Source of the DNA: Bacteroidota bacterium
GTDB taxonomy: Bacteria > Bacteroidota > Bacteroidia > NS11-12g > UBA9320
Assembly: GCA_016124755.1 (NCBI GenBank)
Contig: WGNA01000031.1
Span: 1-64,000 of the forward strand
Length of the DNA stretch: 64,000 nucleotides
Reading direction: 5' to 3'
Made by a program: the position numbers and the translations under genes
Part shown: positions 989 through 25,490 of the stretch, one piece after another
How positions within the stretch are numbered: the stretch's first letter is position 1
Layout: each line of letters opens with the position of its first letter
Notes under the pieces: generated by a model
The model's input: the letters and a program-made list of their open reading frames with translations, nothing else
Told to the model about the DNA's origin: nothing
The model's database searches: none

Positions 989-1969
989 CTAATGCGAGTC
1001 AAGGATAGTTGTATTCCGTGGAAGGACGTCTGGTTTTTTGGCAAAATTTGGAGTGCCCGATTTTTTAACATTAACATCAGCACTCTTTTCAACAGTTTTC
1101 TCACCATCCTCTTTTGAATAGGTCACACCAACGGTTACTTCTAAATCACCGCTATATTCATTCTGTTCTTCAGGTGCTGACTGTTCGCAACCTTCTTCAC
1201 AATTTACTGGTTCGACTCCTTCAGCATGTTCTTCCGCTATTTCAACTTCCTCAGGTTCTTCTTCAGAAGCTGTAGATTTAACATCCACATTTATCTCACC
1301 AGACACTTCTATCTTATTTGGTGTTAAATTTATTATAAAATTACTATTGATTGAAGCGTTGGCAGGTGTTAAACCGGGTGAATTTTCAACCGGGGTTCCT
1401 GTTTTAATACTAAACTGGAACTGGACACCATTAAACTTAACTTCGTTATAGGGACTAAATGTAGTTTTTAGCCGCACGCCTCCTAGTGTTTCAAAACTCG
1501 ATTTATCTTCTAAAATAGGGAAATTCATTGCCGTGTAACAAGTTAACTTAATTTGCTTTTTGCTATCCTTCCATGAAGACATCAGTGGAATTGTTACCCC
1601 TAGTCCATAAGAAATTGGGCTTTGTTCTCTTTCTCGTCCATCAACGTCTATAAATTTGATTGGACAATTCCCTGTAAATTGATAGGGAGAATACCATGGA
1701 TAAGTTCGGAATAAGGGATCAACACTTAAAAATCTGCCGATACGCGGATTAAAAATCCTGAACCCATAGTCACATTGGTTACCATTGTTACTAATCTCGT
1801 TGTCATCCTCTTTTCCATTAAACCCAAACCTGTACCCCCCCTCAGGTGCGGCATAACCCGTCTCGGTAATTCCCATCCCAAAAGGATAGTAGTACATCCA
1901 GCCAAGATCCCTATAGGGACATCGTTTTATGCCAATACTATTTGGTGAGAAATGCATCTTTAGCATCAA
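989..1969 (-). CDS. orphan RHS repeat-associated core domain fused to a variable C-terminal polymorphic-toxin domain (a fragment; the N-terminal RHS repeats are absent)
   Basis: The N-terminal ~110 aa (YYYPFGM...RFGFNGKEDDNEISNNGNQCDYGFRIFNPRIGRFLSVDPL...YSPYQFTGNCPIKFIDVDG) match the canonical RHS core ending (...RYxxPxxGRFxxxDP...DPxG). An unrelated 200-aa acidic-rich C-terminal domain follows. The gene is only 326 aa, whereas full RHS proteins exceed 1000 aa. Its stop overlaps the integrase gene. Confidence 0.6.
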   Translation of the reverse strand: MMLKMHFSPNSIGIKRCPYRDLGWMYYYPFGMGITETGYAAPEGGYRFGFNGKEDDNEISNNGNQCDYGFRIFNPRIGRFLSVDPLFRTYPWYSPYQFTGNCPIKFIDVDGREREQSPISYGLGVTIPLMSSWKDSKKQIKLTCYTAMNFPILEDKSSFETLGGVRLKTTFSPYNEVKFNGVQFQFSIKTGTPVENSPGLTPANASINSNFIINLTPNKIEVSGEINVDVKSTASEEEPEEVEIAEEHAEGVEPVNCEEGCEQSAPEEQNEYSGDLEVTVGVTYSKEDGEKTVEKSADVNVKKSGTPNFAKKPDVLPRNTTILDSH

Positions 1970-3024
1970 ATTACGGCTTTTTGGGTAAGCTTTTCGAACA
2001 TAGCATCGGTTTGTTGGTCGAGGCGGTGCTGGTTGTATTTTACGTATTTGTAGAATTCTGTACTTCCGGGGGTGTGTCCGCTAATTTTACGAACCGTTGT
2101 TTCATCCACTCCGAGATTAAGCATCGTTGTAATAGCGGTTCGTCGCATGGTGTGGGTGCTCACCAGATCACAAAAACGGTATTGCTTTCTGCACTTGTTT
2201 GGTGCTTGCTGAATAAACGGAATTCCTCTCTGGGTTCTGTACTTGGGTAAGTCGTAAGTCCAACCGGCTAATTCAGCCAACTGTTTAATCTGTTTGTTGA
2301 AGTTTCTGCGATCCGTTTTGCGAAAGAGCATTTTACCGCGTGTTTTATTGCGTTGTACAATGGCAACGGCATAAGCGGGTAACTTAATACGGGTAAACGT
2401 ATGTGTCTTTTGAGAAATGGTTTTCAGGTACACCGAGTTGTCGCTCTGCCATTCCAGATTTTCGTTTTTCAGATTTAGTAAATCACTTACCCTCAACCCC
2501 ACTGTACAACCGAACACAAACAGGTCTTTGGTTCTTTTCTGCAACGCGTTAAGCCGGGCTTCAAATATCTCGTCCGAGATCAGAAATTGCAATTGTTCCG
2601 GTTCCAGCGCGATAATCTGTATGTCTTCTTTCCACACATGAAAGTTCTGGTAGAATGGTCCTAAGGAAATTCCCTTGTGGTGATTTACCCATTTTAAAAA
2701 GGTCTTTAGCATTTTTATATTATGCCCCACATAGTTGTCGAAATGCCCCTGGTCGTCGAACAGAAAATTGGTGAACTGCAGATACAGTTTTTCGTAGTAT
2801 CGCTTTTCCTGCTCAAACAGTCGCTTGTTATTACCGATTGATTTAATCCGCAGTTCAAATCCGGTCTTTTCAACGAACAGAATAAGCAACCGCCGCACAT
2901 ACCGGTAGTTGTTTTTTGAATCGGCAGTCATTTTTCTTCCGCCTTTCAGCATTCGTTTGTTGCGGTTGGTTGCCATCAAAAACGAATCGAACAGGGAGAG
3001 CATGTCGTATTGGGTTGTTTTCAT
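1966..3024 (-). CDS. tyrosine-type site-specific recombinase/integrase
   Basis: The C-terminal catalytic region reads LRVSDLL...HTMRRTAITTMLNLGVDETTVRKISGHT...FYKY, fitting the R...HxxR...Y pattern of phage-integrase-family recombinases. It is 352 aa and overlaps the downstream RHS fragment by 4 nt. Confidence 0.8.
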   Translation of the reverse strand: MKTTQYDMLSLFDSFLMATNRNKRMLKGGRKMTADSKNNYRYVRRLLILFVEKTGFELRIKSIGNNKRLFEQEKRYYEKLYLQFTNFLFDDQGHFDNYVGHNIKMLKTFLKWVNHHKGISLGPFYQNFHVWKEDIQIIALEPEQLQFLISDEIFEARLNALQKRTKDLFVFGCTVGLRVSDLLNLKNENLEWQSDNSVYLKTISQKTHTFTRIKLPAYAVAIVQRNKTRGKMLFRKTDRRNFNKQIKQLAELAGWTYDLPKYRTQRGIPFIQQAPNKCRKQYRFCDLVSTHTMRRTAITTMLNLGVDETTVRKISGHTPGSTEFYKYVKYNQHRLDQQTDAMFEKLTQKAVI

Positions 3025-3183
3025 TCAATAAGAAATTTCGATGCATACAAATAGGATGTATGGATAATTTAAGGTGGTCATGGTTTTCCAGCATGGATGA
3101 ATAGAAAACGTTGACATAGGGATGGGTTTGTTTTATCAAGTAACTAACAAGAGCTCCGGATCTTCAGAACCAAAGTTGAACGA

Positions 3184-3222
3184 AATAAAAAAGAAAGGCT
3201 TCATTAATTAATGAAGCCTTTC
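3184..3222 (-). terminator. rho-independent terminator for the lipoprotein gene 3247..3804
   Basis: A perfect 13-bp inverted repeat, aaaggcttcatta/attaatgaagccttt, spans 3194-3221. On the minus strand it is followed by a T-run (plus strand aaaaaag at 3186-3192). Confidence 0.5.
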
Positions 3223-3246
3223 GATGAATAATTTTTTATTGGTAAA

Positions 3247-3804
3247 TTATTTTGATTCCCAGATAAGACGCCCTTTTTCGATAAGAGCAGTTGCCTTACC
3301 ATCACCACCATCAACGCAAGTCATATAACCTTTACCAAATTCGGAAATTAATTTTCCATCTACCATTTTAAGTACGTACGTGCCATTGGGTGTAGGAGGT
3401 TCATCGGTAGTCGTAAATTGGCAATAAGCCGGAGGAGGGCCTTCAGAATAGGAAAGTTGAACTTCAAATTCATCAAAGTCAAAATCCGTGGTGTACCATT
3501 TAGATATGACATAATCTCTAGGCAACAAAGTGTCCCCGGATTTTTCATGAACAATTATTACTTCAGGGTAAGTGTTCTTAAGACTTATTCTGAGCTCTTT
3601 TGTAGATGGGTTATTAACGATTTTCTTGCTTTTGAAATTTTTTCCTTCAAATCGCTCTCCATTCAGCACAATATATTCCTCCAGTGAGTCGGAGGTGTTG
3701 TTATTATTGTTATTGTTAGTTGTTGGTGTGGGGTCGTCGCCACAACTCCAAATCGAAAATCCAAGGAATAAAGTGAGAGCGGTGCTTAGAATATTTTTCT
3801 TCAT
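3247..3804 (-). CDS. hypothetical lipoprotein
   Basis: Signal peptide plus lipobox MKKNILSTALTLFLGFSIWSCGDD. There is a poly-Asn tract, and the terminator lies downstream. Confidence 0.6.
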   Translation of the reverse strand: MKKNILSTALTLFLGFSIWSCGDDPTPTTNNNNNNNTSDSLEEYIVLNGERFEGKNFKSKKIVNNPSTKELRISLKNTYPEVIIVHEKSGDTLLPRDYVISKWYTTDFDFDEFEVQLSYSEGPPPAYCQFTTTDEPPTPNGTYVLKMVDGKLISEFGKGYMTCVDGGDGKATALIEKGRLIWESK

Positions 3805-5214: not shown

Positions 5215-5270
5215 TATTTTGAATAAGGAAGTTTCCAGACCAATACGGTATTTTACTGGTATTAATTTCT

Positions 5271-6310
5271 GTGGGGCTATAGCCACCCCTCCCCGAATGA
5301 AAGTTCGGGATCTTTTATTGGATCGGCAAAAATTTCGATGATATTAAGTGCTTATTTTCATTGAGATATTTGTATGAAAATATGTGCGGCTTGTTTCACG
5401 CAGAGACGCAGAAGATTGTGTGAATTGTTAAAGTTTAATTTGAGTTCGCAGAGGTTGCCCGAGAATGGAAAATTTGTTGTGAATGATTAGAGGCTATTTC
5501 CGCCGGGCAATTGCCACCCCTTACCCGGATGAAAGTTCGGTGTATTGAAATAACAAAACAAAAAACCAGACAATTTTAAACATTTACTTTTTTAAATGTA
5601 TTCCATTTTTCACGCAGAGTTCGCAGAGGACAACAACGAGCTTTAAGCTATACCGAATTATTAGATTTGAGAGGCGCAGATGTGTATGATGGAGAGTAAG
5701 TGGGTGCCATGTCTTAAAAAACATCTAATCATTATGCGGAACTCCCCTTAGCCAAATCCGTCATTGAGGGAGTAGAGAAAATTTTGTGGGCTATAGCCGC
5801 CCCTCCCCGGATGAAAGTTCGGGATCTTTTTAATGACCTGCAAAAACTCGGTTGAATTTAAATGCTTATTTCTGATTGATATAGTCGGAAAAAAATTGTG
5901 TAACTTGGTTCACGCAGAGGCGCAGGAGATGAGGAATGAGGAATTTAAATGTTTGGGTTATAACAGCTCACTGTTTTTGTTGAGGTGATGATGAGTTCGC
6001 AGAGTTGGCACTTAAACGTGCGGTTCTTACCTAATGAATTATTGAGTTGGATAGAACCTCATTTGGCCGACCACCCTCGCACCTTATGTTATGGAATTTA
6101 TTTCGCAGGTGTATTTCTGCGGGGCTATAGCCACCCCTCCCCGGATGAAAGTTAATCAGTTTGTGGTTTCGAAACAAATTAACCGCTTGAATTAAATGCT
6201 TATTTCTGAATGGGAAATGCCGGGCAATAGCCACCCCTCCCCGGATGAAAGATACAAATTCATTGCACATCAAACGCAACCGGATGATCAATTAAGTACT
6301 TAACCCAGAC
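5271..6310. repeat. mosaic intergenic repeat array, family A, cluster 1
   Basis: Five copies of the core GGCTATAGCCACCCCTCCCCGGATGAAAGTT. They are interleaved with the modules AAATGCTTATTTCT and TTCACGCAGAG(A/G)CGCAG. No ORF is supported. Confidence 0.8.
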
Positions 6311-6419
6311 ACCAACAAACTTTATAATTTTAATTCTTTATGCTCATAATAGATGTTTCTACGGGTGTAGATCATTTATCTTATTTTTAACTTTTTAATA
6401 AATGCTTATTGGTTTAAAT

Positions 6420-6765
6420 GCAAGTAAACCAACTTGTGGTTCACTTCCATTGTAGTAATAGAAAGAATAAAATGCATGGTGCGAAGCGGATCCTAAAACA
6501 AGAATAGGATCGCGTGGGTTGGCCGTCGGAAAGGTGGGATATCCACGGCGGGAATTTTTCATTTGGTAGAAAATCGGGAAAGTGCTTGACACCTCTTTCC
6601 CAGATTTTCAACAAATGATAAAGGGCGCTTACCGGCTTTCTTTCCGACTTGATTTTTTGCTTACTTTTTTATCAAGAAAAAAGTAAGAATATAAATTGTA
6701 AATTAATCCCCAACCAATTTACAATCTTGGTGTATCCATACGGAGAAGCATTTATTATTTTATTA
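6420..6765. repeat. family B repeat element, copy B1 (~340 bp)
   Basis: The same ~330-bp sequence recurs at 18215-18548 (same orientation) and inverted at 51760-51945, 53198-53505 and 54748-55040. It has a GC-rich core (GGATCGCGTGGGTGGGCCGTCGGAAAGGCGGGATAGCCCCGGCGGGAATTT) and an internal perfect hairpin, CTTACTTTTTTATCAAGAAAAAAGTAAG. Confidence 0.8.
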
Positions 6766-6788
6766 TACAAAAAAGAATTTTAAAGCTA

Positions 6789-7946
6789 TTAGCCCTCTTG
6801 TCCCGCCAACTTAATTCCCTGATTCCCTGCCCATGTACTAATGCTGTGTTTTGCAATAGCTGCAGCCATTAAATCCGGGAATAAATCGGGAGAACAACCA
6901 AAGACCGGTATTCCTAATTGTGCTAAAAAATCAGCATTAGAATGATCAAAAGAAGGATTTCCATTATCATCCAAAGCTAAAAGAGTTATTACCTGTACCC
7001 CGGAATTATTGAGTGCAGCAAAGCGCTTTCTCATTTCTTCCGTATCTCCTCCTTCGTATAAATCTGTAATTAAAAAGAGAATAGTATCCGTTGGTCTGCG
7101 AATAATCTGCTGACAATATTGAAGTGCCTGATTAATATCGGTTCCGCCTCCAAGCTGAACTCCAAATAACAGATCTACCGGATCTTTGAGATCTTCGGTA
7201 AGGTCGGCAACACTTGTATCAAATACCACCATGCGCGTATCCACCGCCGGAATAGAAGCGATCACCGCACCGAAAATACCGGAATACACAACGGATGCTC
7301 CCATAGAGCCGCTTTGATCAATACATAAAACGATGTCTCGAAGAGAACGACGTTTTTTCCCAAAACCGATTCGAGTTTCCGGAATAATGGTTTTGTAATC
7401 GGGTTGATAATGTTTCAGATTTTTCCGGATGGTTTCCGGCCAGTTTATTTCATTAAATCTGGGATTTCGGTTTCGAACAGATCGGTTAATACTTCCGGTT
7501 ATCGCCTGTCGGGTAGGGGATTCCAGCTTTCGAATTAATTCATCCACCACTTTTTTAATTACCATTCGGGCGGTGGCTTTTGTTTTTTGCGGAATCAATC
7601 TGCCCATGGTCATCAGATTGGCGACCAGATGAACATCCGGTACAACCGATTCCAGCATTTCCGGCTCGGTGAGCATTTGTTGAAGATTTAAACGACTGAG
7701 GGCATCCTTTTGTAATAATTGAACAGTTGATGCCGGAAAATATTCGCGTATATCGCCCAACCATCTTGCAACATTCGGAGAAGATGGGCCCAGTCCTCCT
7801 TTTCTGTCTGAATTATAAAGAGCTTCTAATGTTTTATCAATTCCGGATTCCAGTTTGTTCAATTCCATCGGAATTTCTGTCTGTACTTCTTTTCCGAGTA
7901 ATAACCGCCAGCGCTTTAATACTAATTCCTGCTCCTCTTTATTCAT
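6789..7946 (-). CDS. VWA (von Willebrand factor A) domain protein
   Basis: MIDAS motif VLCIDQSGSMGAS with downstream T and D residues. 385 aa. The start overlaps the stop of the upstream gene by 8 nt. Confidence 0.8.
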   Translation of the reverse strand: MNKEEQELVLKRWRLLLGKEVQTEIPMELNKLESGIDKTLEALYNSDRKGGLGPSSPNVARWLGDIREYFPASTVQLLQKDALSRLNLQQMLTEPEMLESVVPDVHLVANLMTMGRLIPQKTKATARMVIKKVVDELIRKLESPTRQAITGSINRSVRNRNPRFNEINWPETIRKNLKHYQPDYKTIIPETRIGFGKKRRSLRDIVLCIDQSGSMGASVVYSGIFGAVIASIPAVDTRMVVFDTSVADLTEDLKDPVDLLFGVQLGGGTDINQALQYCQQIIRRPTDTILFLITDLYEGGDTEEMRKRFAALNNSGVQVITLLALDDNGNPSFDHSNADFLAQLGIPVFGCSPDLFPDLMAAAIAKHSISTWAGNQGIKLAGQEG

Positions 7947-10206
7947 CGTTCTGCTTTTTGAGTTCTAACAATGATGCGTAAAATGGGATGATGAGCTGAG
8001 CACGTTTTTGGTCCCATCTCGTATCATCAGGTTCTGTTACACCGGATTGAATCTGTTGGAGTTTCAACGCTAACTGGCGCTTTTCTGCCGGAGAATAGGT
8101 CGAAACGGTTCTTCGTAATAATGGAATGATTTCCTGAAAAATTTGGTCGTTGAGGCCAATCAACCAGCGACTGATGATGTTTCTGATTACATCGTCGTAC
8201 AGTAAAATTGATGCACCGTCCATCAGAAATCCTTCAATCCAGGCAGCGGATGCCGAAGGTGGATTTGCAAGAGATAACGATCTGCCGAAAACGGATGCCG
8301 TTTCTTCTTCATCAAATTGATTTCGGTCGTAAAGGATCTTACAGCAGATGCCGTTCACCATTGGAGCACTCTGTTCAGAATCCGCAACTTTCTGAATGGT
8401 AGTAAACCAATCATCCGAAAATTCTTCCTCTTCCAACAACAAAACCGCATCGTGAACCTCGCGGATTCGGTTAGTGAGATTTAAGGCCTCTTCTTCATTA
8501 ATACCGTTGGGAGCATACTCCAGCCCCGGCAAAATCCGGTAAAAAACAGAACGCACAATAGAACTGATCATTACCAGATCCGTGTTTCGCACATTCCCGT
8601 ACCGTTTTATTCGAACCAATGGGGCAAAAGCTGCCATCAAAGCCGGAATATCTGACGACGATGCCGACAAATCATCGAGTCGTTGAAGCGCTGTTTCAAT
8701 TCCGGTTGTTAATTCAGTTGGAATCGCGTCTTCGATTAATGAACTGATTTCTGAAATGCTGTTGCAGTTCCCGGCGAGATGAATTAAAAATTGATTAGCC
8801 GCCAATTCAATAGTATTCCCCCAAATGGCTTTTTCAATTAATTCAATCACCATTTCCGGATCCCATTGAAGTGTCCATTCTTCTTTAAAAGTTCCTTTAC
8901 CGCGGCTGAATGCTTCATAAGCCCACTGAATTTTCAGAATCTTCAGCCGGTGGAATAGAATGCTTTTTTGGAGATCCGTTTCTTTTCGCAAATCAAGCGT
9001 AATGGATTTCGGAGTTTCCGACAGCTTTAACCGAAGTGATTTTACCGATTTTTCAAAATCCCGGTAAATGGGTGCCTGCGGTGTTCCTTCCGGTATTTCA
9101 CCGATCACAGAACCAACAATAAGATCGCGCCAGATGAGCTTCATCAGAACATCGTCACCCATGCACATCACGGCTATAGTGGATTCGATGTGCTCGTTAA
9201 GTCCCGGTTTGTTGTAATTGCGCAAAGCGGCCAGTGCATTCGACAACTTCACACTTTCAATTATGTGAGCTGATGAAACATCCGTTGCATTTTCGCGGAA
9301 CACAGCGGCCGTTTTGGAAAGCCAGTATGTTCCGTCATCATCCAGCATTTGCCACAGATAACGGTACCAGCCCGGAGACCGCACTCCCGCTCCGTACCCT
9401 GTGTGAAACGACATTCGGGTGTAGGTCCACGGAACCCAGGTCATTTCAATTTTCGTTTTCGGCAAACCCTTTAACAGGGAATTATCCCCTTTAAATTTTT
9501 TACTATCGGTTAATGCGGGAACGTGCCATGCTCCGCACACAACTACAATATTTTGGAATCCTTCCTTTTCGGTACTTTTCAGAATTTTCCGCATCCAGGC
9601 TTCCCGTAACGCATCGATTTTTTGCACATCCGGAAATTCCTCTCGCAATGCAGATATTACTTCAGTGATTCCATCAAAAACTTCCAGAGCTGTTTCTGCC
9701 CTTTCTACCTGATGTTCCCACCACAGATCTCCATCATCGAAACCGGTTAGCTTCGCCAGATATCCAAATGGATCCTCCTTAACCTGCTCTGAATCCTTAT
9801 CGTCTATCGTGTATCCTTCTATTTCCTGATCCGTTACCGTTACTGTTACTGTTACCGTTTCAGTTACCGTTTCAGTTACCGTCCCCGTCCCCGCCAACGC
9901 ATGATGCAACGGCAAATCCATGAACCGCACAGGAATATCTTTTTCCTGTGCGAACCGAATCGCATTCCACTCCGGAGAGTATTCTGTAAAAGGGTAGAAA
10001 TGTGCGTTTTTCGGATTATCAGTGGCATACGCCAGCATCGCAACCGGAGGCTTCATATTCGCATGGCTGAACCATTTGAGGAGGGTATCGCCTTCTGGCG
10101 GACCTTCAACCAGAATCACATCGGGATGTAATTCTTCCAACACATGTAAAACGTGTCTTGATGAACCAGGGCCATGGTGTCGGATACCTAAAACGTGAAC
10201 CGGCAT
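7939..10206 (-). CDS. DUF5682-like large protein of the MoxR/VWA cassette
   Basis: 755 aa. The N-terminus MPVHVLGIRHHGPGSSRHV is as I recall for DUF5682-family proteins. It contains an in-frame low-complexity TVTETVTETVTVTVTVT tract. Confidence 0.6.
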   Translation of the reverse strand: MPVHVLGIRHHGPGSSRHVLHVLEELHPDVILVEGPPEGDTLLKWFSHANMKPPVAMLAYATDNPKNAHFYPFTEYSPEWNAIRFAQEKDIPVRFMDLPLHHALAGTGTVTETVTETVTVTVTVTDQEIEGYTIDDKDSEQVKEDPFGYLAKLTGFDDGDLWWEHQVERAETALEVFDGITEVISALREEFPDVQKIDALREAWMRKILKSTEKEGFQNIVVVCGAWHVPALTDSKKFKGDNSLLKGLPKTKIEMTWVPWTYTRMSFHTGYGAGVRSPGWYRYLWQMLDDDGTYWLSKTAAVFRENATDVSSAHIIESVKLSNALAALRNYNKPGLNEHIESTIAVMCMGDDVLMKLIWRDLIVGSVIGEIPEGTPQAPIYRDFEKSVKSLRLKLSETPKSITLDLRKETDLQKSILFHRLKILKIQWAYEAFSRGKGTFKEEWTLQWDPEMVIELIEKAIWGNTIELAANQFLIHLAGNCNSISEISSLIEDAIPTELTTGIETALQRLDDLSASSSDIPALMAAFAPLVRIKRYGNVRNTDLVMISSIVRSVFYRILPGLEYAPNGINEEEALNLTNRIREVHDAVLLLEEEEFSDDWFTTIQKVADSEQSAPMVNGICCKILYDRNQFDEEETASVFGRSLSLANPPSASAAWIEGFLMDGASILLYDDVIRNIISRWLIGLNDQIFQEIIPLLRRTVSTYSPAEKRQLALKLQQIQSGVTEPDDTRWDQKRAQLIIPFYASLLELKKQNDE

Positions 10207-10212
10207 AAAGTT

Positions 10213-11295
10213 TTAAATCAAATCACGACAAGAGCGATACACATCTTTCCAGCCATCCCTGCTTTTCATAACGGTATCCATATATTCCTGAAAAACCACT
10301 TTATCCTGCACCGGATCTTTAACAATGGTTCCGATGATACCGCTTGCCAGATCATCTGCCTGAAGTTTACCGTCTCCAAAATGTTGTGATAATGCGAGCC
10401 CACTGTTCATAACCGAAATAGCCTCTGCGGTTGAAAGAGTGCCGCCGGGAGATTTCAGCTTGGTTTTTCCGTCGATGGTAACACCGTTCCGGAGTTCGCG
10501 GAAAATGGTTACAACTCTTTTTATTTCTTCTGTAAAAGATTTATCGGGTGTGAATTCGGAGGTTTTCAGAAATCCTGTAACACGCTGCCGGACAATTTCC
10601 ACTTCTTCTTCAATGGTGGCCGGAACTGGAAGAATTACCGTATTAAATCTTCTTTTTAATGCACTGGATAAGTCATTAACCCCTTTATCGCGGTTGTTGG
10701 CAGTTGCAATAACATTAAAACCTCTCGTTGCCTGCACTTGTGTGTTGAGTTCGGGAACCGGCAGCATTTTTTCGGAAAGAATGGTAATCAACGAATCCTG
10801 AACATCTGAACCGATACGGGTTAATTCCTCTACCCGAACAATTTTTCCATGTTTCATGGCTCGCATTACCGGTGTTTCAACCAATGCCCGTTCCGAGGGA
10901 CCTTCCGATAAAAGCAAAGCGTAATTCCATCCGTACCGAACCGCTTCTTCGCTGGTTCCGGCTGTTCCCTGAACCAAAAGTCCGGAGTCGCCGGTGATCG
11001 CTGCTGTTATGTGCTCCGACACCCATGACTTTGCAGTACCGGGAAGTCCGTACAGTAACAAAGCCCGGTCGGTTGTGAGGGTTGCAATGGCAATCTCCAT
11101 GAGTCTTTTATTACCGATGTATTTGGGCGTTATCTCAAATCCGCTTTTTAGTTTTCCTCCCATCAAATACGTTAGAACCGAAGAAGGTGACATCTGCCAG
11201 CCTTCCGGTTTTTTCCCGGAATCCGATTCTTTAATGGCATTTAATTCAGCTTCGAATTCCTTTTCTGCGGGTAGTCGTAATATGTTTTCAGACAT
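10213..11295 (-). CDS. MoxR-family AAA+ ATPase
   Basis: Walker A LLYGLPGTAKS, Walker B/sensor IVRVEEL...ATANNRD, and arginine finger SALKRRF. 360 aa. Confidence 0.85.
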   Translation of the reverse strand: MSENILRLPAEKEFEAELNAIKESDSGKKPEGWQMSPSSVLTYLMGGKLKSGFEITPKYIGNKRLMEIAIATLTTDRALLLYGLPGTAKSWVSEHITAAITGDSGLLVQGTAGTSEEAVRYGWNYALLLSEGPSERALVETPVMRAMKHGKIVRVEELTRIGSDVQDSLITILSEKMLPVPELNTQVQATRGFNVIATANNRDKGVNDLSSALKRRFNTVILPVPATIEEEVEIVRQRVTGFLKTSEFTPDKSFTEEIKRVVTIFRELRNGVTIDGKTKLKSPGGTLSTAEAISVMNSGLALSQHFGDGKLQADDLASGIIGTIVKDPVQDKVVFQEYMDTVMKSRDGWKDVYRSCRDLI

Positions 11296-11300
11296 AATAA

Positions 11301-12794
11301 TTAATTGAGAAGATTATTTGAATTGAGTTGCTTTTTAAGATTAATGATATCCAGCATTTCGTCTAAGCGTTTTATCCAGAAATGATTTTCCAATTTGGTG
11401 AATTCAGTTTTGTAGGATTCTAACATTCCTGTAATGGAAACCGGCAAATAGAGCGAGAGTTCACGGATTTTCGGGCTATCTACATTGTACGGATGTTCCA
11501 GTAATTGATTAAAAATAATTTCAGAAACACCCGGATCTATTACCGTATATTCACCATCTGTAAACTGATCTATTAATTCATTTATCTGCATGGATCTGGC
11601 TAGTTTCTGAGCCAGTTCTTTCTTTTCATAAACTGAGAAAAACGAAATCATTTCGCTACTTATCAAAACCTTTTCAGATTCGATCAGCGCTTTAGCCCAT
11701 TTTTTATTTTTAAAATGAGTTGCACTCATGGCGGCAAAAGGAGCCAGAAAATCAACATTCTCATGGCTTAATAATAGTTGAATTAACTCATACTCGGAAA
11801 TGCCGAGTGTTTGGGAAATTAATTCAGGATTTGTTAGGCCAATGATTTGACCGGCGATAAATACCGCATCTGTTAATTGCTTTATGTTCGATGTTTCCTC
11901 AACTCCGGCGTCGAGTAATATTTTTTCCGGTTTGCCGGGAAAAGCAAAATGGATAACCTTTTTCTTTTTAATTAACATTACCCGTTGCTCATCAATCTGA
12001 ATGGCTTTTTTTAAATAATTTAGACACGCTTTCGATATATCGGAGCCGGGAATAAAACACAAAGCGCGATATGCTGCATTACGTACTTTAATACTCCGAT
12101 CGGATAAACAGGATTCAAAAAATGGCTGATCATCAGAATTAATTTTCTGGCTCAGGGCATCAACTAAAAACTCCCGCATATCGGCGTTTTCGGCAGAAAA
12201 ACTTTCTGATAAAATGAGTCGTGCAGTGTTTGGGTCGTTCTTTAGTAATGATTTAAACCATTGTTTTCGAATCGCCGGAGAGCCGGTTTCCCAAATATTT
12301 TCATCCGAATCAGAAATACTTGATTTATTCGCCCAATCCGGATTAATACTTCGCAGCCATTTCCCGGTTTCGCCCTCGACATCCGACAATAATTGCGGAT
12401 CTATTTTATTTCTTTGATTAAAGTACATAAGATCTGAAACCAAAAATCCGGGTACAATTATTCCTCGTTTTCTGAAATTCGTCAAAAGATAAGAAACGAG
12501 GACGGCGTCTGATTCCTGAAGATATTTTTTGAAGTAATGCGTTATTTCAGCAGGGGCAATGGGTTTTGTCTCGTTTGGACAAACCGGGAATTCGCCTTTA
12601 ATTTCAACTCCGTTAAATCCGGCTTCGTTGATGGCAAATACAAGTGCAATGGATTTCAGAAACGCGTCTTCTGTATCGCTTTCATTTTCTGCGACAATCT
12701 GCAATAATTCCTTTGGTAAATCAAGTATACTCCCTCCGGCTCTGCTGGTTCCGAGAGTGGCGGTTTTGGTAATATTTGTTGTGTTAATTTTCAA
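11301..12794 (-). CDS. alpha-helical protein (DUF5691-like) of the MoxR/VWA cassette
   Basis: 497 aa with no catalytic motifs. Its position between the SWIM and MoxR genes matches the recurrent annotated neighbourhood. Confidence 0.45.
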   Translation of the reverse strand: MKINTTNITKTATLGTSRAGGSILDLPKELLQIVAENESDTEDAFLKSIALVFAINEAGFNGVEIKGEFPVCPNETKPIAPAEITHYFKKYLQESDAVLVSYLLTNFRKRGIIVPGFLVSDLMYFNQRNKIDPQLLSDVEGETGKWLRSINPDWANKSSISDSDENIWETGSPAIRKQWFKSLLKNDPNTARLILSESFSAENADMREFLVDALSQKINSDDQPFFESCLSDRSIKVRNAAYRALCFIPGSDISKACLNYLKKAIQIDEQRVMLIKKKKVIHFAFPGKPEKILLDAGVEETSNIKQLTDAVFIAGQIIGLTNPELISQTLGISEYELIQLLLSHENVDFLAPFAAMSATHFKNKKWAKALIESEKVLISSEMISFFSVYEKKELAQKLARSMQINELIDQFTDGEYTVIDPGVSEIIFNQLLEHPYNVDSPKIRELSLYLPVSITGMLESYKTEFTKLENHFWIKRLDEMLDIINLKKQLNSNNLLN

Positions 12795-14095
12795 AAGGAA
12801 TAATAAATTGAATTAAACCAAATCCCCAGAATCATGAATGTAGTTCTGTGAATACAGCCAAAAATGCTTGTTGGCTTGCCACCAGTTATTGATAATGCCT
12901 TCATAATTTCCAATTCCGGATTTATTAATTCAAGCCCAATATTATCGCTGTCCTTTAGCATCCATTTCTGATTGTGCCGAACAACGGAGACTGCTGAAAA
13001 AACAACCGGGAATTCGTTCCCGAAGGGTTGATTAATCCGGTAAGCTGTTTTCGCATCTAAAGCTAGGGTAATGCCGGAAAAACCGGATATGACGGTACAT
13101 CCGGATGAGGTTTTTCGTAAAGCGGAAGGAATAGCCCGGAGGTTTTGTTTGCCGGGATAAAAATGGACATCCGCCTCGATTGTGGTATTGGCGAGATAAT
13201 GTGTTTCCATGATTTGTCCGGGTGCAAAGAATTGAAGTAGTTGAGCGAACCGTTTATCTTGTTCACTATACATCCAGATTTTTTCCATCGTGAGTCGGTC
13301 CATCTCTGATTGCTGACAGGAAAGAACCATCCAGTTTCCTGTAATTGCATCCGTTTTTAATACTTCTTCTTTTGTGATATTCCAGCCGATCCACTGTTCG
13401 AGATCGCTGTGGCGTTCTTCATCCAGTACGTTTCGGTTTACATACGTTTCACTTAGCAGGTAAAGCGATGATGCCTGATACATTAATTCTTCCGGCCAGC
13501 TTTGTTGGCTGAAATCTATTTCATTGAATTGCCTGAGTCGGTTTGCTAATCCGCCAGCCTGAGCATCAACCATTCGGGAAATAATATTTGCATTAAACTG
13601 AAACCGGTTTTGTGGAATGGAAACGATGCCATTTCGAACGAGATCTTTCAACCAAAGTTGAAGTTCTTCGATACCGTTTCTGACTTTTTCTTCCCGTGAT
13701 TCAATTCGCTTTGCTTTGGCCTCTGGATCCACGGATTTTGATTCCGATGATTCCTTTTTTTCGGCACGTGAGTTTCGTTTATCGAGCCATTCCTGAACAT
13801 CTTCAGGATTTGGATTCTGGGTAAATTCTGATGTGTTTCGGAGTTGAAGGATCAGAATGGAGAGTCCGTGTTTACAGGGAAATTTTCGACTTGGGCACGA
13901 ACATTTAAAGGCGATGTTACCAAGATCAACCATTACCCGATACGGAAGTTTCCCGCTACCTTTACAATTTCCCCAGAGAGCGTTTTCACTTCTGCCCGTA
14001 TCAGACCAATTCGAAACAACCGCTAATTTCTCCCCGGCTTTCACAGAGGCTTCATCAGGGGCAAGTCGTGTTATTTCGTCGAGACTAAAAGACAT
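12791..14095 (-). CDS. SWIM zinc-finger protein
   Basis: CSCPSRKFPCKHGLSILI gives a CxCx(n)CxH SWIM signature. The probable start is MSFSLDEI at 14093-14095; the longer ORF up to 14200 is less likely. There is a 4-nt ATGA overlap with the downstream gene. Confidence 0.7.
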   Translation of the reverse strand: MSFSLDEITRLAPDEASVKAGEKLAVVSNWSDTGRSENALWGNCKGSGKLPYRVMVDLGNIAFKCSCPSRKFPCKHGLSILILQLRNTSEFTQNPNPEDVQEWLDKRNSRAEKKESSESKSVDPEAKAKRIESREEKVRNGIEELQLWLKDLVRNGIVSIPQNRFQFNANIISRMVDAQAGGLANRLRQFNEIDFSQQSWPEELMYQASSLYLLSETYVNRNVLDEERHSDLEQWIGWNITKEEVLKTDAITGNWMVLSCQQSEMDRLTMEKIWMYSEQDKRFAQLLQFFAPGQIMETHYLANTTIEADVHFYPGKQNLRAIPSALRKTSSGCTVISGFSGITLALDAKTAYRINQPFGNEFPVVFSAVSVVRHNQKWMLKDSDNIGLELINPELEIMKALSITGGKPTSIFGCIHRTTFMILGIWFNSIYYSF

Positions 14096-14304
14096 GGTAT
14101 CGGGGTAAAAATAAGAATTGAATTTCACGATTCTGAAAAGGAGCGAAAAACTTTTTATGCCCAATCGACAGTCGTTTTTGCGGGCATAATAATCAGACAA
14201 GCCTGCTGCATTTGTAATTTTTATTTTTAACTGTTGGGTCCAGACTTAACAAGAATGACCAAAGCGCGATTTGCAGAATTAATAAATCGCTACTTTCGAA
14301 ATAC

Positions 14305-15544: not shown

Positions 15545-16790
15545 GTAGGGCTGTGGCACCCTTGCTCGGATGAAAATTAATAGATTTGGAAATTTAAACA
15601 AACAAACGTGCAGAAAAATATACTTAATGTTGGATTGGAAATGCTGGGGTAAGAACCACCCCTCCCCGGATACAAGATAAGCGATTCCTGAATCGTAATC
15701 AAATATACGTGCAGAAATAAATGCTTAAAGTTGGTTCGAAAAAGCTGGGGCAATAGCCACCCCTCCCCGGATGAAAGTTCGGGATCTTTTATTGGATTGG
15801 CAAAAATTCGGATGATATTAAGTACTTATTTTCAATGAGATGTTTGTGTCTAAAAATGTGTGGATTGTTTCACGCAGAGACGCAGGAGAATGGGAAATAT
15901 GTTGTGAATGATTAGAGGCTATCTCAATACTTCTACGAATATTTGAATTGAAGGTGGGACACTATTTCCGCGGGGCAGTAGCTACCCCTCCCCGGATGAA
16001 AGTTACTCGATTAATTGGTCTGGAACAAATAAACGAGCTGAATTAAATGCTTAATGTTGTATAGAAAAGGTTTGGGTAAGAACCACCCCTCCCCGGATGA
16101 AAGTTCGGGAACTTTTATTGGATCGGCAAAAATTCGGATCATATTAAGTACTTATTTTCAATGAGATGTTTGTGTGTAAAAATGTGTGGATGGTTTCACG
16201 CAGAGAGGCAGGGGAATGGGTGAAATATGTTGTGAATGATTAGAGGCTATCTCAATACTTCTACGAATATTTGAATTGAAGGTGGGACACTATTTCTGCG
16301 GGGCAGTAGCTACCCCTCCCCGGATTAAAGTTACTCGATTAATTGGTCTGGAACAAATAAACGAGCTGAATTAAATGCTTAATGTTGTATAGAAAAGGTT
16401 TGGGTAAGAACCACCCCTCCCCGGATGAAAGTTCGGGATTCTTTGATTAGTTCCCAAATTAAAGAGCAGAAATAAGTGTTTATTTGATTTAAAGGTCAAT
16501 GAGTATTTCAAGTAGTTCACGCAGAAGCGCAGATCTTTGGTTCGTTTTGAATGCGAATATGCTATAGGAATATTCAGGTTTTGAAAATGCATCGATGGGA
16601 GTCGCGGAGAATGCGGTATGCCAGAAATCCAACCGATTATTCAAATGTTTGTTCTTGTAATTTCCGGCCGGGCAATAGCCACCCCTCCCCGAATGAAAGT
16701 TCGGGAATTGTTATCAAACATCAACTATCGGATACCCGGATAAGCACTTATTTTTGTTTGCACAACTTCAGTTCAGATGAAAGTTCAAAA
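15545..16790. repeat. mosaic intergenic repeat array, family A, cluster 2 (includes a ~340-bp near-identical tandem duplication)
   Basis: About 8 copies of the CCACCCCTCCCCGGATGAAAG core. The segment 15745-16085 is repeated almost exactly at 16085-16430. Confidence 0.8.
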
Positions 16791-17201: not shown

Positions 17202-18194
17202 ATGATCGGGAAAAACAATTCCAATACAAGATTGCGTTACCTGTTGGAGATGCTCGATAATTGTCCGAATGAAATACAGTCTCAGAGAATGAGATTAATC
17301 CTGATTCTATGTATTGTTCTTAATTCTAATATCCAGGCTCAGAATTATACAAAGTCAGATTCCGTACTACTTAATAATTATTACGACACAATTCCGCCTC
17401 AATCGGAATGGATGTGGGGTGAACAAGTAAACAGGGTAAATAAATATGGTTTTGTGGAGGGGAAACAAATTCGGTTTGATTCGAAAGGAAATTTAATAAC
17501 TATCACAATGTTTCCGGAGAAAGTACTTTATCAACAAGCAAATTATGTTTGGAAAGCAGAATTTGAAAATGATACTTTAGTGTTGATGAGTGATTCTTCC
17601 GGTTCCGAAATACGATGGTTTTCTAATGGAATTATAGAAGAAGCTATTACCCAATATCGCTGCGGGGATGATAAGTTCGTTTCAAAATATAAAGCCAATA
17701 TCAATGGATTAGTGACGGAAACATCTTTACTCCGATATTACTGGAAAGAAGATACCAGTATGTTTAATCATTGTTTTCGCAAATGCAGGTTTGTTTCCGA
17801 ATTAATATATTCTTTTAAATATTATAATAATGGAAATCCAAAATATTCATTTAATAACGATACCGCAATTTATTGGAATGAAAATCAAACCATTCGAACA
17901 AAGATGTATCCGGATGGTTCTGTAACCTTTAATGACGGAGGCAAAGTAATTGACAGGCAATTTACATGGTGGGAGCCGGGCGACAGTTGTTCGGAAGATG
18001 TTCAGGTAAAGATGGTGGTATCCTACGAATTAGAAGATGTTATTGATTTATATGTGTACAAGATGATACCGAATAAAAGAGCGGAATACTTCCGGTGGAA
18101 ATGGGATCAATCAGGTCGTCGGCTTGTATCGGCAAGTAACTGGGAAGGGGAATTGCCATGGAAAAGGTTTTCAGAATTTAATGATTTATACTAA
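17202..18194 (+). CDS. hypothetical secreted protein
   Basis: Probable signal peptide MRLILILCIVLNSNIQAQ (from an internal Met). 330 aa. Confidence 0.5.
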   Translation: MIGKNNSNTRLRYLLEMLDNCPNEIQSQRMRLILILCIVLNSNIQAQNYTKSDSVLLNNYYDTIPPQSEWMWGEQVNRVNKYGFVEGKQIRFDSKGNLITITMFPEKVLYQQANYVWKAEFENDTLVLMSDSSGSEIRWFSNGIIEEAITQYRCGDDKFVSKYKANINGLVTETSLLRYYWKEDTSMFNHCFRKCRFVSELIYSFKYYNNGNPKYSFNNDTAIYWNENQTIRTKMYPDGSVTFNDGGKVIDRQFTWWEPGDSCSEDVQVKMVVSYELEDVIDLYVYKMIPNKRAEYFRWKWDQSGRRLVSASNWEGELPWKRFSEFNDLY

Positions 18195-18214
18195 TATGTT
18201 TCTCCGGTTAATTA

Positions 18215-18548
18215 CACCAACTTGTGGATCACTTCCATTTAAGTATTAAAAAGAACAAAATGCATTGTGCGAAGCGGATCCTAAAACAAGAATAGGATCG
18301 CGTGGGTGGCCGTCGGAAAGGCGGGATAGCCCCTGGGGGAATTTCTTATTTGGTAGAAAATCGGGGAAAATGCTTGACACTTCTTTCCCCAGATTTTCAA
18401 CAAATGATAAAGGGAGCTTGGGCAGCTTTTTTTCGACTTGATTTTTTGCTTATTTTTTTATCAAGTAAAAAGTGAGAAGAAATGCGAATGTAAATCAATA
18501 CCAAACTGATTTACAATAATGGTGTATCCAAACGAACGAGCATTTTAT
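18215..18548. repeat. family B repeat element, copy B2
   Basis: About 85% identical to 6420-6765, including the hairpin CTTATTTTTTTATCAAGTAAAAAGTGAG. Confidence 0.8.
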
Positions 18549-18749
18549 ATTAATTCGTTAAGCCTAAAAAATAAAATGTTTCAGTACAATGGATAAGTAT
18601 AAAAATATTAAAATAGGAACATTTGTTCTGGCCTGATAATGAATTTGTAAGAGATGAAAAGGCACTCAATATTTTTTTCGAGATGATAGATGAAAATGAT
18701 TTGTTGTATTGCTTAATGAGTTATTTTCGCTTTTGTAATAGCCACCTGT

Positions 18750-19337
18750 ATGAAGAAATGGATTGTGATATTTCTCACGATTTCTGTGCTTTTTAATTCG
18801 TGCAAAGAAGAAGTTGAAAGCGTTCCCGAATGCGAAAACTGTTTGCAGTTTACCGATCCGCAAGGAGTTAAACGAACCTTTACCATCTACTCAAAGGAGC
18901 TTTCCGATAATACCGGATACTTCGACACCGCAACCGGTAAGCAGGTTCCAAACACCAAACTAAATTTGTACTTCTCTGAATCTCCAACCAGTATTATCGG
19001 TATAACCTTATACACCAATGTGCCTTTCGATTTTAAAAGAAATTATACAAGTACCGGCAAGGTGGATTATTTGCCCGGCGGAAATATCAGTGGTGCATAT
19101 AACAAATCAATTGTTGTGTTTTGGGATGGAGGCAACACTGCGGCTTATTCGTATCTGGCGCTAAAATCAGATTTTAGGGTTGAGAATTATTCTTACTCTG
19201 AAAATGTATTCGATCAGCACATAATTAAGGGTGAATTGGATTTGGTTTTTGAACGCAGCGACTCCAGCCAAACAATACCGTCATTTGGAGTGAACAGGGC
19301 AGAAATCAACAAGGCTTTCTTAAATATTAAATTCTAA
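18750..19337 (+). CDS. hypothetical lipoprotein
   Basis: MKKWIVIFLTISVLFNSCKEE lipobox. Confidence 0.6.
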   Translation: MKKWIVIFLTISVLFNSCKEEVESVPECENCLQFTDPQGVKRTFTIYSKELSDNTGYFDTATGKQVPNTKLNLYFSESPTSIIGITLYTNVPFDFKRNYTSTGKVDYLPGGNISGAYNKSIVVFWDGGNTAAYSYLALKSDFRVENYSYSENVFDQHIIKGELDLVFERSDSSQTIPSFGVNRAEINKAFLNIKF

Positions 19338-19340
19338 CAG

Positions 19341-20588
19341 ATGAAGTTAAAAATAGCGGCATCAATTGGTGTTTTATTATTCCTTTCATCCTGTAAAGAC
19401 GATAGTGAAGTTGACCAACCGGTTAAACAATCTTCAGGTTTTCACAACAATCTGAATGGCTGGAATTACATTGGAAAAGCCACAAATACCATATCAAATA
19501 TTAATTCACCACAATTTATGTCCTACAAATTATTTTGTGGTAACACTTTTAATAATAAAGTTGATATTGTTTATCAGTTCGACAATGCAAACGATTACCC
19601 GACAACCCAAAGAGCACACAGATTGATATTTAATGCAGATGGTTCAACTTTTTTTTTCGGAACCATTAACGTTGATATTTATCCTTACAGCGCAAGTACT
19701 ACAGCTTCGCGTGAAATAAAAAGTGTAGCAACGAAGGGATTGTTAGAGGATGATATCTGCATGGTGATCGGGAGTCAAACCAACTCCAATCTGATCACAA
19801 GTGCCATTAAACCCCGATATAAAAGTGAGCATACAGAAGTATTTACAACGTTAAACGGATCCCCGATACTATGGAAAAAACAGGCATCTGATCTCACGCC
19901 TGACAATGGGTTTTTCGGAAATTATTTTATGGTAAAGCCATTGTATAAAGGGGATCAGTATCCTATTACTTTTGACGAAACAAGTGGCAATGTGCATGTT
20001 GCAGGTTATGTGGAGGATGACGGAACCTTAACATTGGCTTCCGTGGGGGGAGGTGCAGGATTTCGTGCTCTTTCTCTTTTTAAAAGTTCTATAGGTCTGG
20101 AAAATATCAACTGGAATGGGGTTTATGCCGGGCCGGTACACCATGCAATTCCCAAACATAATTTATCGGTGGCTTCTCTTTCAAATGGTGATGCCAATAC
20201 CGATTTATCTAAATCCCTTTTTGTGAGAATAAATGGAAGTCTGTACATGGTACTCGCATTTACCAATGGAGAAACCCGTCTCGTAGAAGCCGACCGCAAG
20301 AATTACATATTAAAGGTGAATTCGGATTATGTATATCCCGAGTCGGTAGCCAAAGAAAACTGGATAGGGTTGAGTGCCAGAGACATTGGAACAGTTTATA
20401 CATACTCTACCGGTCCGTTTACTATCAACGAATACGATGGTCACGGTACATCTTCTGTTCAATTGCCGGATTTTAAAAATTTTACCCCACAGGAAGGCGG
20501 CGTTGTTGGAGTAACCATGACCAACGACAGGCTTTATCTGATGATTTACAATGAATATGATATTTATATCTACACGAAAGATTTATAA
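19341..20588 (+). CDS. hypothetical lipoprotein
   Basis: MKLKIAASIGVLLFLSSCKDD lipobox. It starts 4 nt after the previous stop. Confidence 0.6.
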   Translation: MKLKIAASIGVLLFLSSCKDDSEVDQPVKQSSGFHNNLNGWNYIGKATNTISNINSPQFMSYKLFCGNTFNNKVDIVYQFDNANDYPTTQRAHRLIFNADGSTFFFGTINVDIYPYSASTTASREIKSVATKGLLEDDICMVIGSQTNSNLITSAIKPRYKSEHTEVFTTLNGSPILWKKQASDLTPDNGFFGNYFMVKPLYKGDQYPITFDETSGNVHVAGYVEDDGTLTLASVGGGAGFRALSLFKSSIGLENINWNGVYAGPVHHAIPKHNLSVASLSNGDANTDLSKSLFVRINGSLYMVLAFTNGETRLVEADRKNYILKVNSDYVYPESVAKENWIGLSARDIGTVYTYSTGPFTINEYDGHGTSSVQLPDFKNFTPQEGGVVGVTMTNDRLYLMIYNEYDIYIYTKDL

Positions 20589-20597
20589 CAGGGCATT

Positions 20598-22172: not shown

Positions 22173-22231
22173 ATTTAGAATGATCAAGTTCTTTAAAGGT
22201 TTTAACAGTTAAATTAAAAAGAGTATTTTGG

Positions 22232-23675: not shown

Positions 23676-23721
23676 ATGCTAAAAATTATTTTGGACAGGA
23701 GATAAACAAATTATAGATTGA

Positions 23722-24981: not shown

Positions 24982-25426
24982 AATAATTGTTCTTCTTTTA
25001 ATCACGGTTTTGCTGACATCCACGAAGCAAGAAAGTCCATTTATACCGGAAGTCGCTGTTTCTCTACAAAACGATACACTTCGGTCAGACGATTTGCATC
25101 AGGGCAGTTTGTTAATTTTTTATAAACAGCCTTATTGTCACGACTGTCTTCCGGAAATGATCAAACATCTTCAGCATTCCAGAGAATTAAAACATCAGAT
25201 TTTTATTTTAATGGAGTCCGATAATATTATTATGCAGAGAACAGAATACAATTTTTTGTTGAATAAGGGTTGCCCCATTTCAGAATCGAATTTTTTGCGC
25301 TATCCGGTTTCTGGCTCTTCATCAAAAGGCCATTTATATGCTTTGAAATGCAATGATTCAACATCCATTAAATGGACATACGAAGAGATCATGAAAAAGA
25401 GAATCAGAAGGAAAACGAATCTGTAG
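24974..25426 (+). CDS. hypothetical secreted protein
   Basis: Signal peptide. 150 aa. Overlaps the previous gene by 8 nt. Confidence 0.5.
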   Translation: MNRIIVLLLITVLLTSTKQESPFIPEVAVSLQNDTLRSDDLHQGSLLIFYKQPYCHDCLPEMIKHLQHSRELKHQIFILMESDNIIMQRTEYNFLLNKGCPISESNFLRYPVSGSSSKGHLYALKCNDSTSIKWTYEEIMKKRIRRKTNL

Positions 25427-25432
25427 TATTTC

Positions 25433-25470: not shown

Positions 25471-25490
25471 GCATTTCATGATCAGATTAT

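Follow-up and report, generated by a model that had tools for sequence, protein, structure and literature searches.

Organization of the five-gene cassette

We analyzed a window of 64,000 nucleotides (nt), positions 1 to 64,000 of contig WGNA01000031.1 in the Bacteroidota bacterium assembly GCA_016124755.1, a Bacteroidetes metagenome-assembled genome (MAG; window locus tag GC181_15825). Here we focus on a tightly packed cassette of five co-directional minus-strand genes, which, judged by homology and gene order, is the Bacteroidota orthologue of the ddrTUVWX-type operon of Deinococcus. In order of transcription, these genes encode a SWIM zinc-finger protein (12791..14095, 434 amino acids (aa), DdrT-like; Pfam SWIM), a DUF5691 protein (11301..12794, 497 aa, DdrU-like; PF18944), an AAA_5 MoxR-family ATPase (10213..11295, 360 aa, YehL/DdrV-like; Pfam AAA_5), a DUF5682 protein (7939..10206, 755 aa, YehM/DdrW-like; PF18934), and a CoxE-type VWA protein with an intact metal ion-dependent adhesion site (MIDAS; 6789..7946, 385 aa, YehP/DdrX-like; Pfam VWA_CoxE). 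All five open reading frames (ORFs) are intact and their junctions coupled. Direct reading of the junctions confirmed the 4- and 8-nt overlaps and the 5-6-nt gaps that a preliminary description of this DNA had reported: the SWIM stop and the TTG start of the DUF5691 gene share the 4-nt overlap TTGA, gaps of 5 and 6 nt precede the ATG codons of the ATPase and DUF5682 genes, respectively, and the DUF5682 and VWA genes overlap by 8 nt (ATGAATAA).

The initial ORF coordinates on the minus strand were 12791-14200, 11301-12794, 10213-11295, 7939-10206, and 6789-7946. We moved the SWIM start, and with it the feature end of 14200 given in the preliminary description, to the ATG at 14095, because an identical 434-aa protein is present in the database and the SWIM homologues are nearly all 432-450 aa long, with a few reaching 483 aa. 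The sole non-coding gap ahead of this gene (14096..14304), which is shared with a divergent TPM-domain gene, is presumed to be the promoter/operator region of the operon. A scan of the upstream region for sigma-70-type promoters and terminators performed no better than on shuffled sequences. The cassette is present as a single copy within the window, and an NCBIfam search of it returned sub-threshold matches only. Hydropathy profiles of the five proteins gave no clear membrane segment; peaks do not exceed 1.45, apart from one that reaches 1.80 in the VWA core, immediately behind the MIDAS.

Conserved features of the encoded proteins

Pfam profile searches upheld all five family assignments of the preliminary description, including DUF5682 and DUF5691, and every motif quoted there (CSC..CKH, GLPGTAKS, SSALKRRF, DQSGS, and VHVLGIRHHGPGSS) was found in the translations. 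The ATPase (AAA_5, E = 6e-36) is the most constrained of the five, with 149 of its 360 residues at least 95% conserved across phyla; these include Walker A (G83-K89), Walker B (E156 E157), the sensor N200, and R215/R216 (n = 73 sequences). In a PDB sequence search its sole relatives were the AAA modules of Midasin/Rea1 (E = 1e-12); PDB sequence searches with the DUF5682, SWIM, DUF5691, and VWA proteins found no relative. The VWA protein (VWA_CoxE, E = 2.9e-47) retains a MIDAS set (D210-Q-S-G-S214, T269, and D295) that is at least 95% conserved, and it ends with the VWA domain, carrying no additional C-terminal effector domain. Its homologues with validated starts span 377-425 aa, and the longer VWA ORFs in GC-rich loci are over-extended start calls.

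The SWIM protein matched Pfam SWIM just above the cut-off (E = 2e-4; 21.2 versus 19.6 bits) and consists of an N-terminal SWIM region, a helical bundle, and a beta-rich C-terminal domain. A new observation is that its N-terminal part resembles ZSWIM8. The DUF5691 protein (PF18944, E = 1.2e-55) has an additional weak HEAT_2 match and is probably a HEAT-like helical repeat; across phyla, conservation of 95% or more is limited to 11 of its residues. A second new observation is that SWIM and DUF5691 form one polypeptide in two loci, one in Actinomycetota (L061) and one in Planctomycetota (L078).

Distribution, gene order, and selection

A scan of one genome per species detected at least 594 loci, of which 80 were fetched for analysis, and hidden Markov models built iteratively from the window proteins were run against all their ORFs. 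The fetched loci came from at least ten phyla (Bacteroidota, Cyanobacteria, Chloroflexota, Acidobacteriota, Planctomycetota, Verrucomicrobiota, Actinomycetota, Proteobacteria, Deinococcota, and Myxococcota), a range wider still than the Actinobacteria and Bacteroidota in which the preliminary description had rightly placed the arrangement. The order SWIM-DUF5691-AAA-DUF5682-VWA was intact in 57/81 loci, most of the others being cut contigs or frameshifted copies; frameshifts or splits occur in some loci (e.g., L044 and L056). Tables of the Prokaryotic Genome Annotation Pipeline (PGAP) list the five products in the same order on Deinococcus and Rhizobium replicons (plasmids), and the first four genes only on a Methylosinus plasmid. 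For the DUF5682 family alone, 1.84 billion representatives contain ~5,050 clusters at 50% identity, with lengths almost always of 700-940 aa, and the window member shares no more than 52% identity with any other known one.

All five genes are under purifying selection, with ratios of nonsynonymous to synonymous substitution rates (dN/dS) of 0.01-0.48 in eight close species pairs. The evolutionary rate rises in the order AAA < VWA < DUF5682 < SWIM < DUF5691, and DUF5691, the fastest-evolving of the five, had the highest dN in 7/8 pairs. The nearest DUF5682 relative lay in the same phylum for 64/82 sequences, which argues for mostly vertical inheritance within phyla with some transfer. One record among 50,697 phages and one contig among 2.9 million viral contigs contained the family; it was present in 44 of 72,556 plasmids, of which 32 are non-mobilizable. 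Across the 80 loci no flanking family was conserved except DUF4132; ABC transporter, kinase, MutS, AraC, HlyD/MacB, Uma2, and 23S_rRNA_IVP neighbours were sporadic only.

Several loci depart from the common arrangement. Two divergent variants lack both SWIM and DUF5691: L053 (9636-17481) carries a NADAR gene between DUF5682 and VWA together with an 18-repeat WD40 protein, and L071 (13484-14617) has an alpha/beta-hydrolase-Tpt1/KptA fusion after VWA. These are single cases, in which NAD/ADP-ribose-related genes are tightly linked to the cassette. Genes were also found inserted between the ATPase and DUF5682 genes, namely a Uma2 endonuclease-like gene in a cyanobacterial locus (L040, ~9134-9897; Pfam), an ORF of the same size and position in L038, likewise cyanobacterial (the Pfam run covered L040 only), and a 23S_rRNA_IVP gene in a planctomycete locus (L069, 9483-9953); these are probably small selfish genes. 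In addition, a locus labelled MAG: Citrobacter freundii (L018) holds a Bacteroidota-type cassette. Its DUF5682 shares 73% identity with the one from a Bacteroidota MAG (L016) and does not resemble E. coli YehM, which suggests a mis-binned contig, not an enterobacterial gene.

Correspondence with ddrTUVWX of Deinococcus

Blanchard et al. 2017 (PMC5552922) described in D. deserti a five-gene operon, Deide_18730-Deide_18690 (SWIM ... VWA CoxE-like), which they named ddrTUVWX. It has a radiation/desiccation response motif (RDRM) as operator, belongs to the IrrE/DdrO-dependent radiation/desiccation regulon, and is among the most strongly induced transcripts after radiation (>5- to 10-fold; SWIM gene, >10-fold). 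The same study reports homologous operons with RDRM sites in several other deinococci and describes ddrTUVWX as 'of unknown function' (PMC5552922). The equivalence with D. deserti was drawn from the product names and the listed homologous species of that study, not from D. deserti sequence. D. maricopensis, D. peraridilitoris, and D. taeanensis each have exactly SWIM-DUF5691-AAA_5-DUF5682-VWA_CoxE, the first two species being in the comparison set of PMC5552922. The window and D. maricopensis proteins correspond one-to-one and in the same order, with identities of 64.5% for the ATPase, 49% for VWA, 35.5% for DUF5682, 30% for SWIM, and 24% for DUF5691. The Deinococcus operons thus match the window gene for gene, and their junctions are likewise tight or overlapping; they differ in their RDRM operator and IrrE/DdrO-governed radiation induction, the window operon having no such motif.

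We also searched the loci with the RDRM-like pattern TTMYGYN5RCRKAA, a consensus that reportedly goes back to Makarova and co-workers in 2007. The loci of the three Deinococcus species have a single site each, located 20-82 nt before the SWIM start. Non-Deinococcus loci yielded six scattered matches; the two that were placed relative to the cassette lie inside or beyond it. Genes of DNA-repair type were seen near some cassettes: an Ada-like methyltransferase/regulator 100 nt upstream of the D. maricopensis cassette (L085, 2944-4011), a DnaE-type polymerase near that of D. peraridilitoris (L087, 10329-14322), and MutS upstream of a planctomycete cassette (L069, 1872-4547). These neighbours are anecdotal and do not amount to a conserved association.

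Correspondence with yehLMPQ of Escherichia coli

In E. coli K-12 the genes yehL (MoxR-family ATPase), yehM, yehP (VWA), and yehQ (SWIM) adjoin. Identity amounts to 37% between the window ATPase and YehL (E = 2e-76), 34% between the window VWA protein and YehP (E = 4e-75), and 23% over 524 aa between the window DUF5682 protein and YehM (E = 2e-34); YehM itself is a PF18934 protein (E = 2e-98). The AAA-DUF5682-VWA sub-order is shared, as is the 8-nt overlap, here between yehM and yehP. However, the E. coli operon has four genes, and its SWIM protein, YehQ (614 aa), stands last and not first, having the SWIM motif alone in common with the window SWIM protein. YehM is also very divergent, with at most 28% identity to any other sampled member, and no recognizable DUF5691 was found in E. 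coli. Taken on these similarities, yehLMPQ can be read as a reduced, rearranged variant of the five-gene operon. That YehQ is a compacted SWIM+DUF5691 protein cannot be claimed, as profile-profile comparisons of SWIM and of DUF5691 with YehQ gave no link; these comparisons, and that of DUF5691 with DUF4132, returned a weak HEAT-like stretch at most.

YehL is one of seven MoxR subfamilies in the passage of PMC3893208 that cites the Snider & Houry classification, and the window cassette is a YehL-subfamily MoxR operon. The preliminary description had missed both this identity and the existing name ddrTUVWX. Its statement that the system has no assigned function stands: a full-text literature search for DUF5682/DUF5691 found no paper naming them, in line with the 'unknown function' wording of PMC5552922, no experimentally assigned function for the YehL subfamily was found in the literature, and literature searches for yehL/M/P/Q returned gene lists and unrelated author names only. 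The yehLMPQ operon was present in 5353/5426 complete E. coli genomes (98.7%), almost always as one chromosomal copy. Of the universality and known housekeeping role that the preliminary description had set against its own reading, the former is thus nearly realized within E. coli, and a known housekeeping role was not found.

DUF4132 as an optional sixth member

A DUF4132 (YehI/MolR-like) protein with HEAT repeats, ~975 aa in length (range ~740-1000 aa), lies directly downstream of or inside the operon in 10 loci (L009, L010, L015, L017, L020, L023, L026, L028, L035, and L075), a recurrence that is newly described here. Three of these loci have it as an insertion: L028 between the DUF5682 and VWA genes, L035 and L075 between the ATPase and DUF5682 genes. 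In E. coli (L001), yehI (5280-8912) and the yehH ('molR') pseudogene stand beside yehLMPQ; the window itself contains no DUF4132 copy. According to a Deinococcus preprint, the DdrO regulon includes a DUF4132 protein as well as a WGR protein, and MolR of E. coli is a member of the LexA regulon. Because these DUF4132 neighbour families are reported in DdrO/LexA regulons, the operon may be linked to DNA damage.

A near-consensus LexA-box-like site (CTGGATAAAATTACAG) was observed in E. coli K-12 (L001, 1450-1465), 10 nt upstream of yehF. The gene yehF encodes a WGR protein and heads the molR/yehI cluster, and a LexA-like site at this place agrees with the reported LexA control of molR.

Predicted fold and candidate active site of the DUF5682 protein

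The DUF5682 protein (PF18934, E = 3e-236) is laid out as an N-terminal TIKI/TraB/ChaN-like alpha/beta domain (~residues 1-265), a middle domain, and a C-terminal alpha-solenoid. In its structure model (predicted local distance difference test (pLDDT), 84.3; predicted template modelling score (pTM), 0.76), the N-terminal domain has fold-level similarity to six members of the TIKI/TraB/PrgY/ChaN/erythromycin-esterase superfamily, and the other high structural matches are alpha-solenoids that cover the C-terminal half. The domain has the alpha/beta fold with a parallel beta-sheet core of ~140 residues that characterizes the superfamily. According to PMC6254334, the TIKI superfamily includes ChaN, HopBA1, Bcr135, and PMT, with cores of ~140-146 residues and a 2His/2Glu site plus a conserved Arg. 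The residues R9, H10, H11, E34, E79, D97, R201, E202, and H228 are invariant in DUF5682, and YehM also carries the equivalents of H10, H11, E34, E79, D97, R201, E202, and H228. The invariant His, Glu, and Arg residues sit after the first, second, and last core strands in the model and are reminiscent of the 2His/2Glu plus Arg site (PMC6254334). In contrast to the superfamily, the window protein adds ~490 further residues, including the alpha-solenoid. A Foldseek search of the model against the PDB gave no significant match and was dominated by alpha-solenoids, and no sequence-level link of the N-terminal domain to TIKI/TraB/ChaN proteins was found. Overall, there is moderate support from modelling for a TIKI/TraB/ChaN-like hydrolase fold, a new finding for DUF5682.

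A 6/12-nt tandem repeat at 9831-9882 encodes a TV/TE low-complexity insert (TGTVTETVTETVTVTVTVTD) at DUF5682 residues ~106-125. The insert falls in a loop that is disordered in the model (pLDDT <50, residues 109-143) and variable among homologues.

Proposed function of the operon

We propose, with a probability of about 0.5, that the cassette is the orthologue of an ancient, self-contained five-gene operon encoding an ATP-driven complex for remodelling or processing that is linked to stress or DNA damage. A hexamer of the MoxR ATPase (gene 3) and its CoxE-type VWA/MIDAS partner (gene 5) would act as the usual chaperone/co-chaperone pair and spend ATP to remodel a protein complex, which may be built on the DUF5682 protein (gene 4) with its putative TIKI/TraB-fold hydrolase-like domain and alpha-solenoid scaffold. 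The SWIM and DUF5691 proteins (genes 1 and 2), faster-evolving than the rest, could together provide a target-recognition arm, and a DUF4132 (YehI/MolR-like) protein would join the machine in some lineages. The operon would most likely be switched on by stress or DNA damage, a deployment that is probable by analogy with Deinococcus, for which the literature documents it, and the machine may then remodel, and possibly cleave, protein or nucleoprotein complexes that are damaged or stalled. Of the two roles suggested in the preliminary description, a stress module and a conflict/defence module, the former fits the radiation induction seen in Deinococcus and the latter went unsupported.

The core of this proposal follows known machines. 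Midasin/Rea1, RavA-ViaA, CbbQ-CbbO, NorQ-NorD, and CoxD-CoxE likewise pair an AAA_5 ATPase with a MIDAS-bearing VWA. The window parts differ from Midasin in being separate small proteins and not one giant chain, and the cassette differs from the MoxR-MIDAS remodellers in having no linked client genes and three extra conserved subunits.

Several observations weigh against the proposal. The induction evidence comes from Deinococcus and not from Bacteroidota copies, and the RDRM operator is specific to Deinococcus. Inspection by eye upstream of the window operon revealed no Bacteroidetes SOS box (GGA-N5-TCC or CTAA-N5-TTAG), and the paper on the Bacteroidetes SOS response makes no mention of SWIM, VWA, or MoxR. 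The reported control of yehL and yehM in E. coli is silencing by H-NS (up in hns/stpA mutants), not SOS induction; no LexA-like box was found before yehL, the E. coli matches overall being not above chance. In addition, no substrate gene is encoded near the cassette, and the putative catalytic residues of DUF5682 were placed in the model by strand position.

A more specific and rather improbable version would make the complex a previously unrecognized, damage-induced, ATP-driven protein-processing machine. Here the MoxR/VWA motor would load or activate DUF5682 as a TIKI-fold protease, a SWIM/HEAT-type receptor (with a ZSWIM8-like N-terminus and OB-like C-terminal domains, and sometimes with WGR/DUF4132 partners) would guide it, and after radiation or desiccation the machine would remove DNA-protein crosslinks or stalled nucleoprotein complexes. 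If true, it would be the functional counterpart in bacteria of the AAA+/protease pairs that act in eukaryotic repair.

Alternative explanations

The main rival to a damage-linked remodelling complex, in our view unlikely, is a maturation system that inserts a cofactor or metal, like CoxD/CoxE, NorQ/NorD, CbbQ/CbbO, CobS/CobT/CobN, or the BchI/BchD/BchH chelatases. The MoxR/VWA pair would then open a client enzyme, and the ChaN-like domain of DUF5682 would bind a metal or tetrapyrrole, the invariant His and Glu residues serving as ligands. Known systems of this kind adjoin their client genes, whereas DUF4132 was the only flanking family conserved among the 80 loci described above, and SWIM, DUF5691, and DUF4132 have no counterpart in the chelatase or Cox systems. 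The Deinococcus operon, moreover, is radiation-induced together with DNA-repair genes, and molybdenum genes gave no response in the Deinococcus preprint.

Less likely than cofactor insertion, and decidedly improbable, is a nucleoside triphosphate-dependent conflict or anti-phage system in which SWIM/DUF5691 senses an invader and MoxR-VWA licenses the TIKI-fold peptidase DUF5682 as effector or activator. This idea parallels the logic of Kaur, Burroughs, Iyer & Aravind 2020 (PMC7159879), in which a vWA-MoxR pair works with a third conserved protein and peptidases. The window and the ternary systems of that study alike combine a MoxR-type ATPase, a vWA partner, and further conserved proteins in one operon, and PMC7159879 also mentions the helical domain at the N-terminus of the CoxE-type vWA protein. 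The several-fold faster evolution of DUF5691 relative to the ATPase, the presence of the toxins RRSP and HopBA1 among TIKI-fold proteins, the two variant loci with NADAR and WD40 or with a Tpt1/KptA fusion, and the patchy occurrence across phyla with some cross-phylum nearest neighbours would all suit such a role, and DNA-damage induction could serve to counter prophage induction. However, PMC7159879, which does not mention SWIM, YehL, or TIKI, defines the ternary systems by VMAP, iSTAND, FtsH, or a beta-propeller fused to vWA, together with variable vWA effector tails, and the window cassette has none of these four third components, no effector tail, and a constant architecture; the link drawn to them in the preliminary description accordingly fails. 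PADLOC (PADLOC-DB 2.0) found no match for the five proteins (noise only, E >= 0.003) or for ten neighbours, and the bpMoxR model scored 22 bits against the cassette, below its 27-bit cut-off. Also against this role are the single copy in the window and the single chromosomal copy in 98.7% of complete E. coli genomes, the gene-wide purifying selection, and the near-absence from phages, viral contigs, and mobile plasmids. Positive support for a conflict or defence role was thus lacking. Finally, a decaying, non-functional remnant or an annotation artefact might be suspected from the frameshifted or split loci noted above and from the H-NS silencing of E. coli yehL and yehM under laboratory conditions; such an origin is hardly credible, being already contradicted by the conservation data, namely intact ORFs, coupled junctions and intact catalytic motifs in the window, dN/dS well below 1 in the eight pairs, and an ATPase 64.5% identical between Bacteroidota and Deinococcota.

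The window locus is an intact, ordinary copy of a known, biochemically unexplained operon family. Its interest lies not in an unusual locus but in bringing together yehLMPQ, ddrTUVWX, and the DUF5682/DUF5691 annotations, three separately named unknowns, as one system, and in testable fold predictions. Concrete handles for experiments in E. coli or Deinococcus come from the TIKI-like hydrolase fold proposed for DUF5682, the fusion of SWIM with DUF5691, and the recurrent DUF4132/WGR partner.

Repeats and surrounding DNA

A dispersed repeat of ~45 nt (GGGCAATAGCCACCCCTCCCCGGATGAAAGTTCGGGA) occurs in 12 strict copies clustered in gene-free stretches. Plus-strand clusters lie at 5270-6266 and 15558-16714, minus-strand copies at 53641-53664 and 54125-54148, and part of the repeat forms a 328-nt tandem unit at 15700-16438. 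An Rfam search of the flanking repeat region, including this repeat, gave no family match. Because the dispersed family also occurs at 53.6-54.1 kb, the repeats are not cassette-specific. The adjacency to repeat clusters asserted in the preliminary description holds loosely, the cluster at 5270-6266 lying ~520 nt beyond the VWA stop and that at 15558-16714 being set apart from the SWIM start by two genes.

We also found a structured-looking element of ~280 nt in four copies, two on the plus strand (6422-6700 and 18210-18490) and two represented by minus-strand cores (53385-53424 and 54937-54976). The plus-strand copies, which bracket the cassette region, are 90% identical, with a GC-rich core and a terminator-like hairpin at the end. 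Rfam gave no match to the element at E <= 1, and it could be a small RNA, a 3'-end element, or a miniature inverted-repeat transposable element. A tyrosine-integrase gene (1966-3024, minus strand), a tRNA-Asp (27921-27993, minus strand), and a WYL/WCX regulator (28174-29184) are also present in the window. We considered whether the integrase, the tRNA-Asp, and the 280-nt repeat bracketing 6.4-18.5 kb could mark the cassette as part of an integrative island, and rejected this, since the two further copies at 53-55 kb identify the repeat as a dispersed element and not a boundary. The direct repeats within the first 29 kb included no att-like tRNA-derived repeat. The ORFs at 17.2-25.4 kb have almost no Pfam matches, with the exception of one protein with a type IX secretion system (T9SS) tail, and the stretch 17202-29184 also contains an SPFH protein; this stretch and that at 989-3804 may be accessory DNA.

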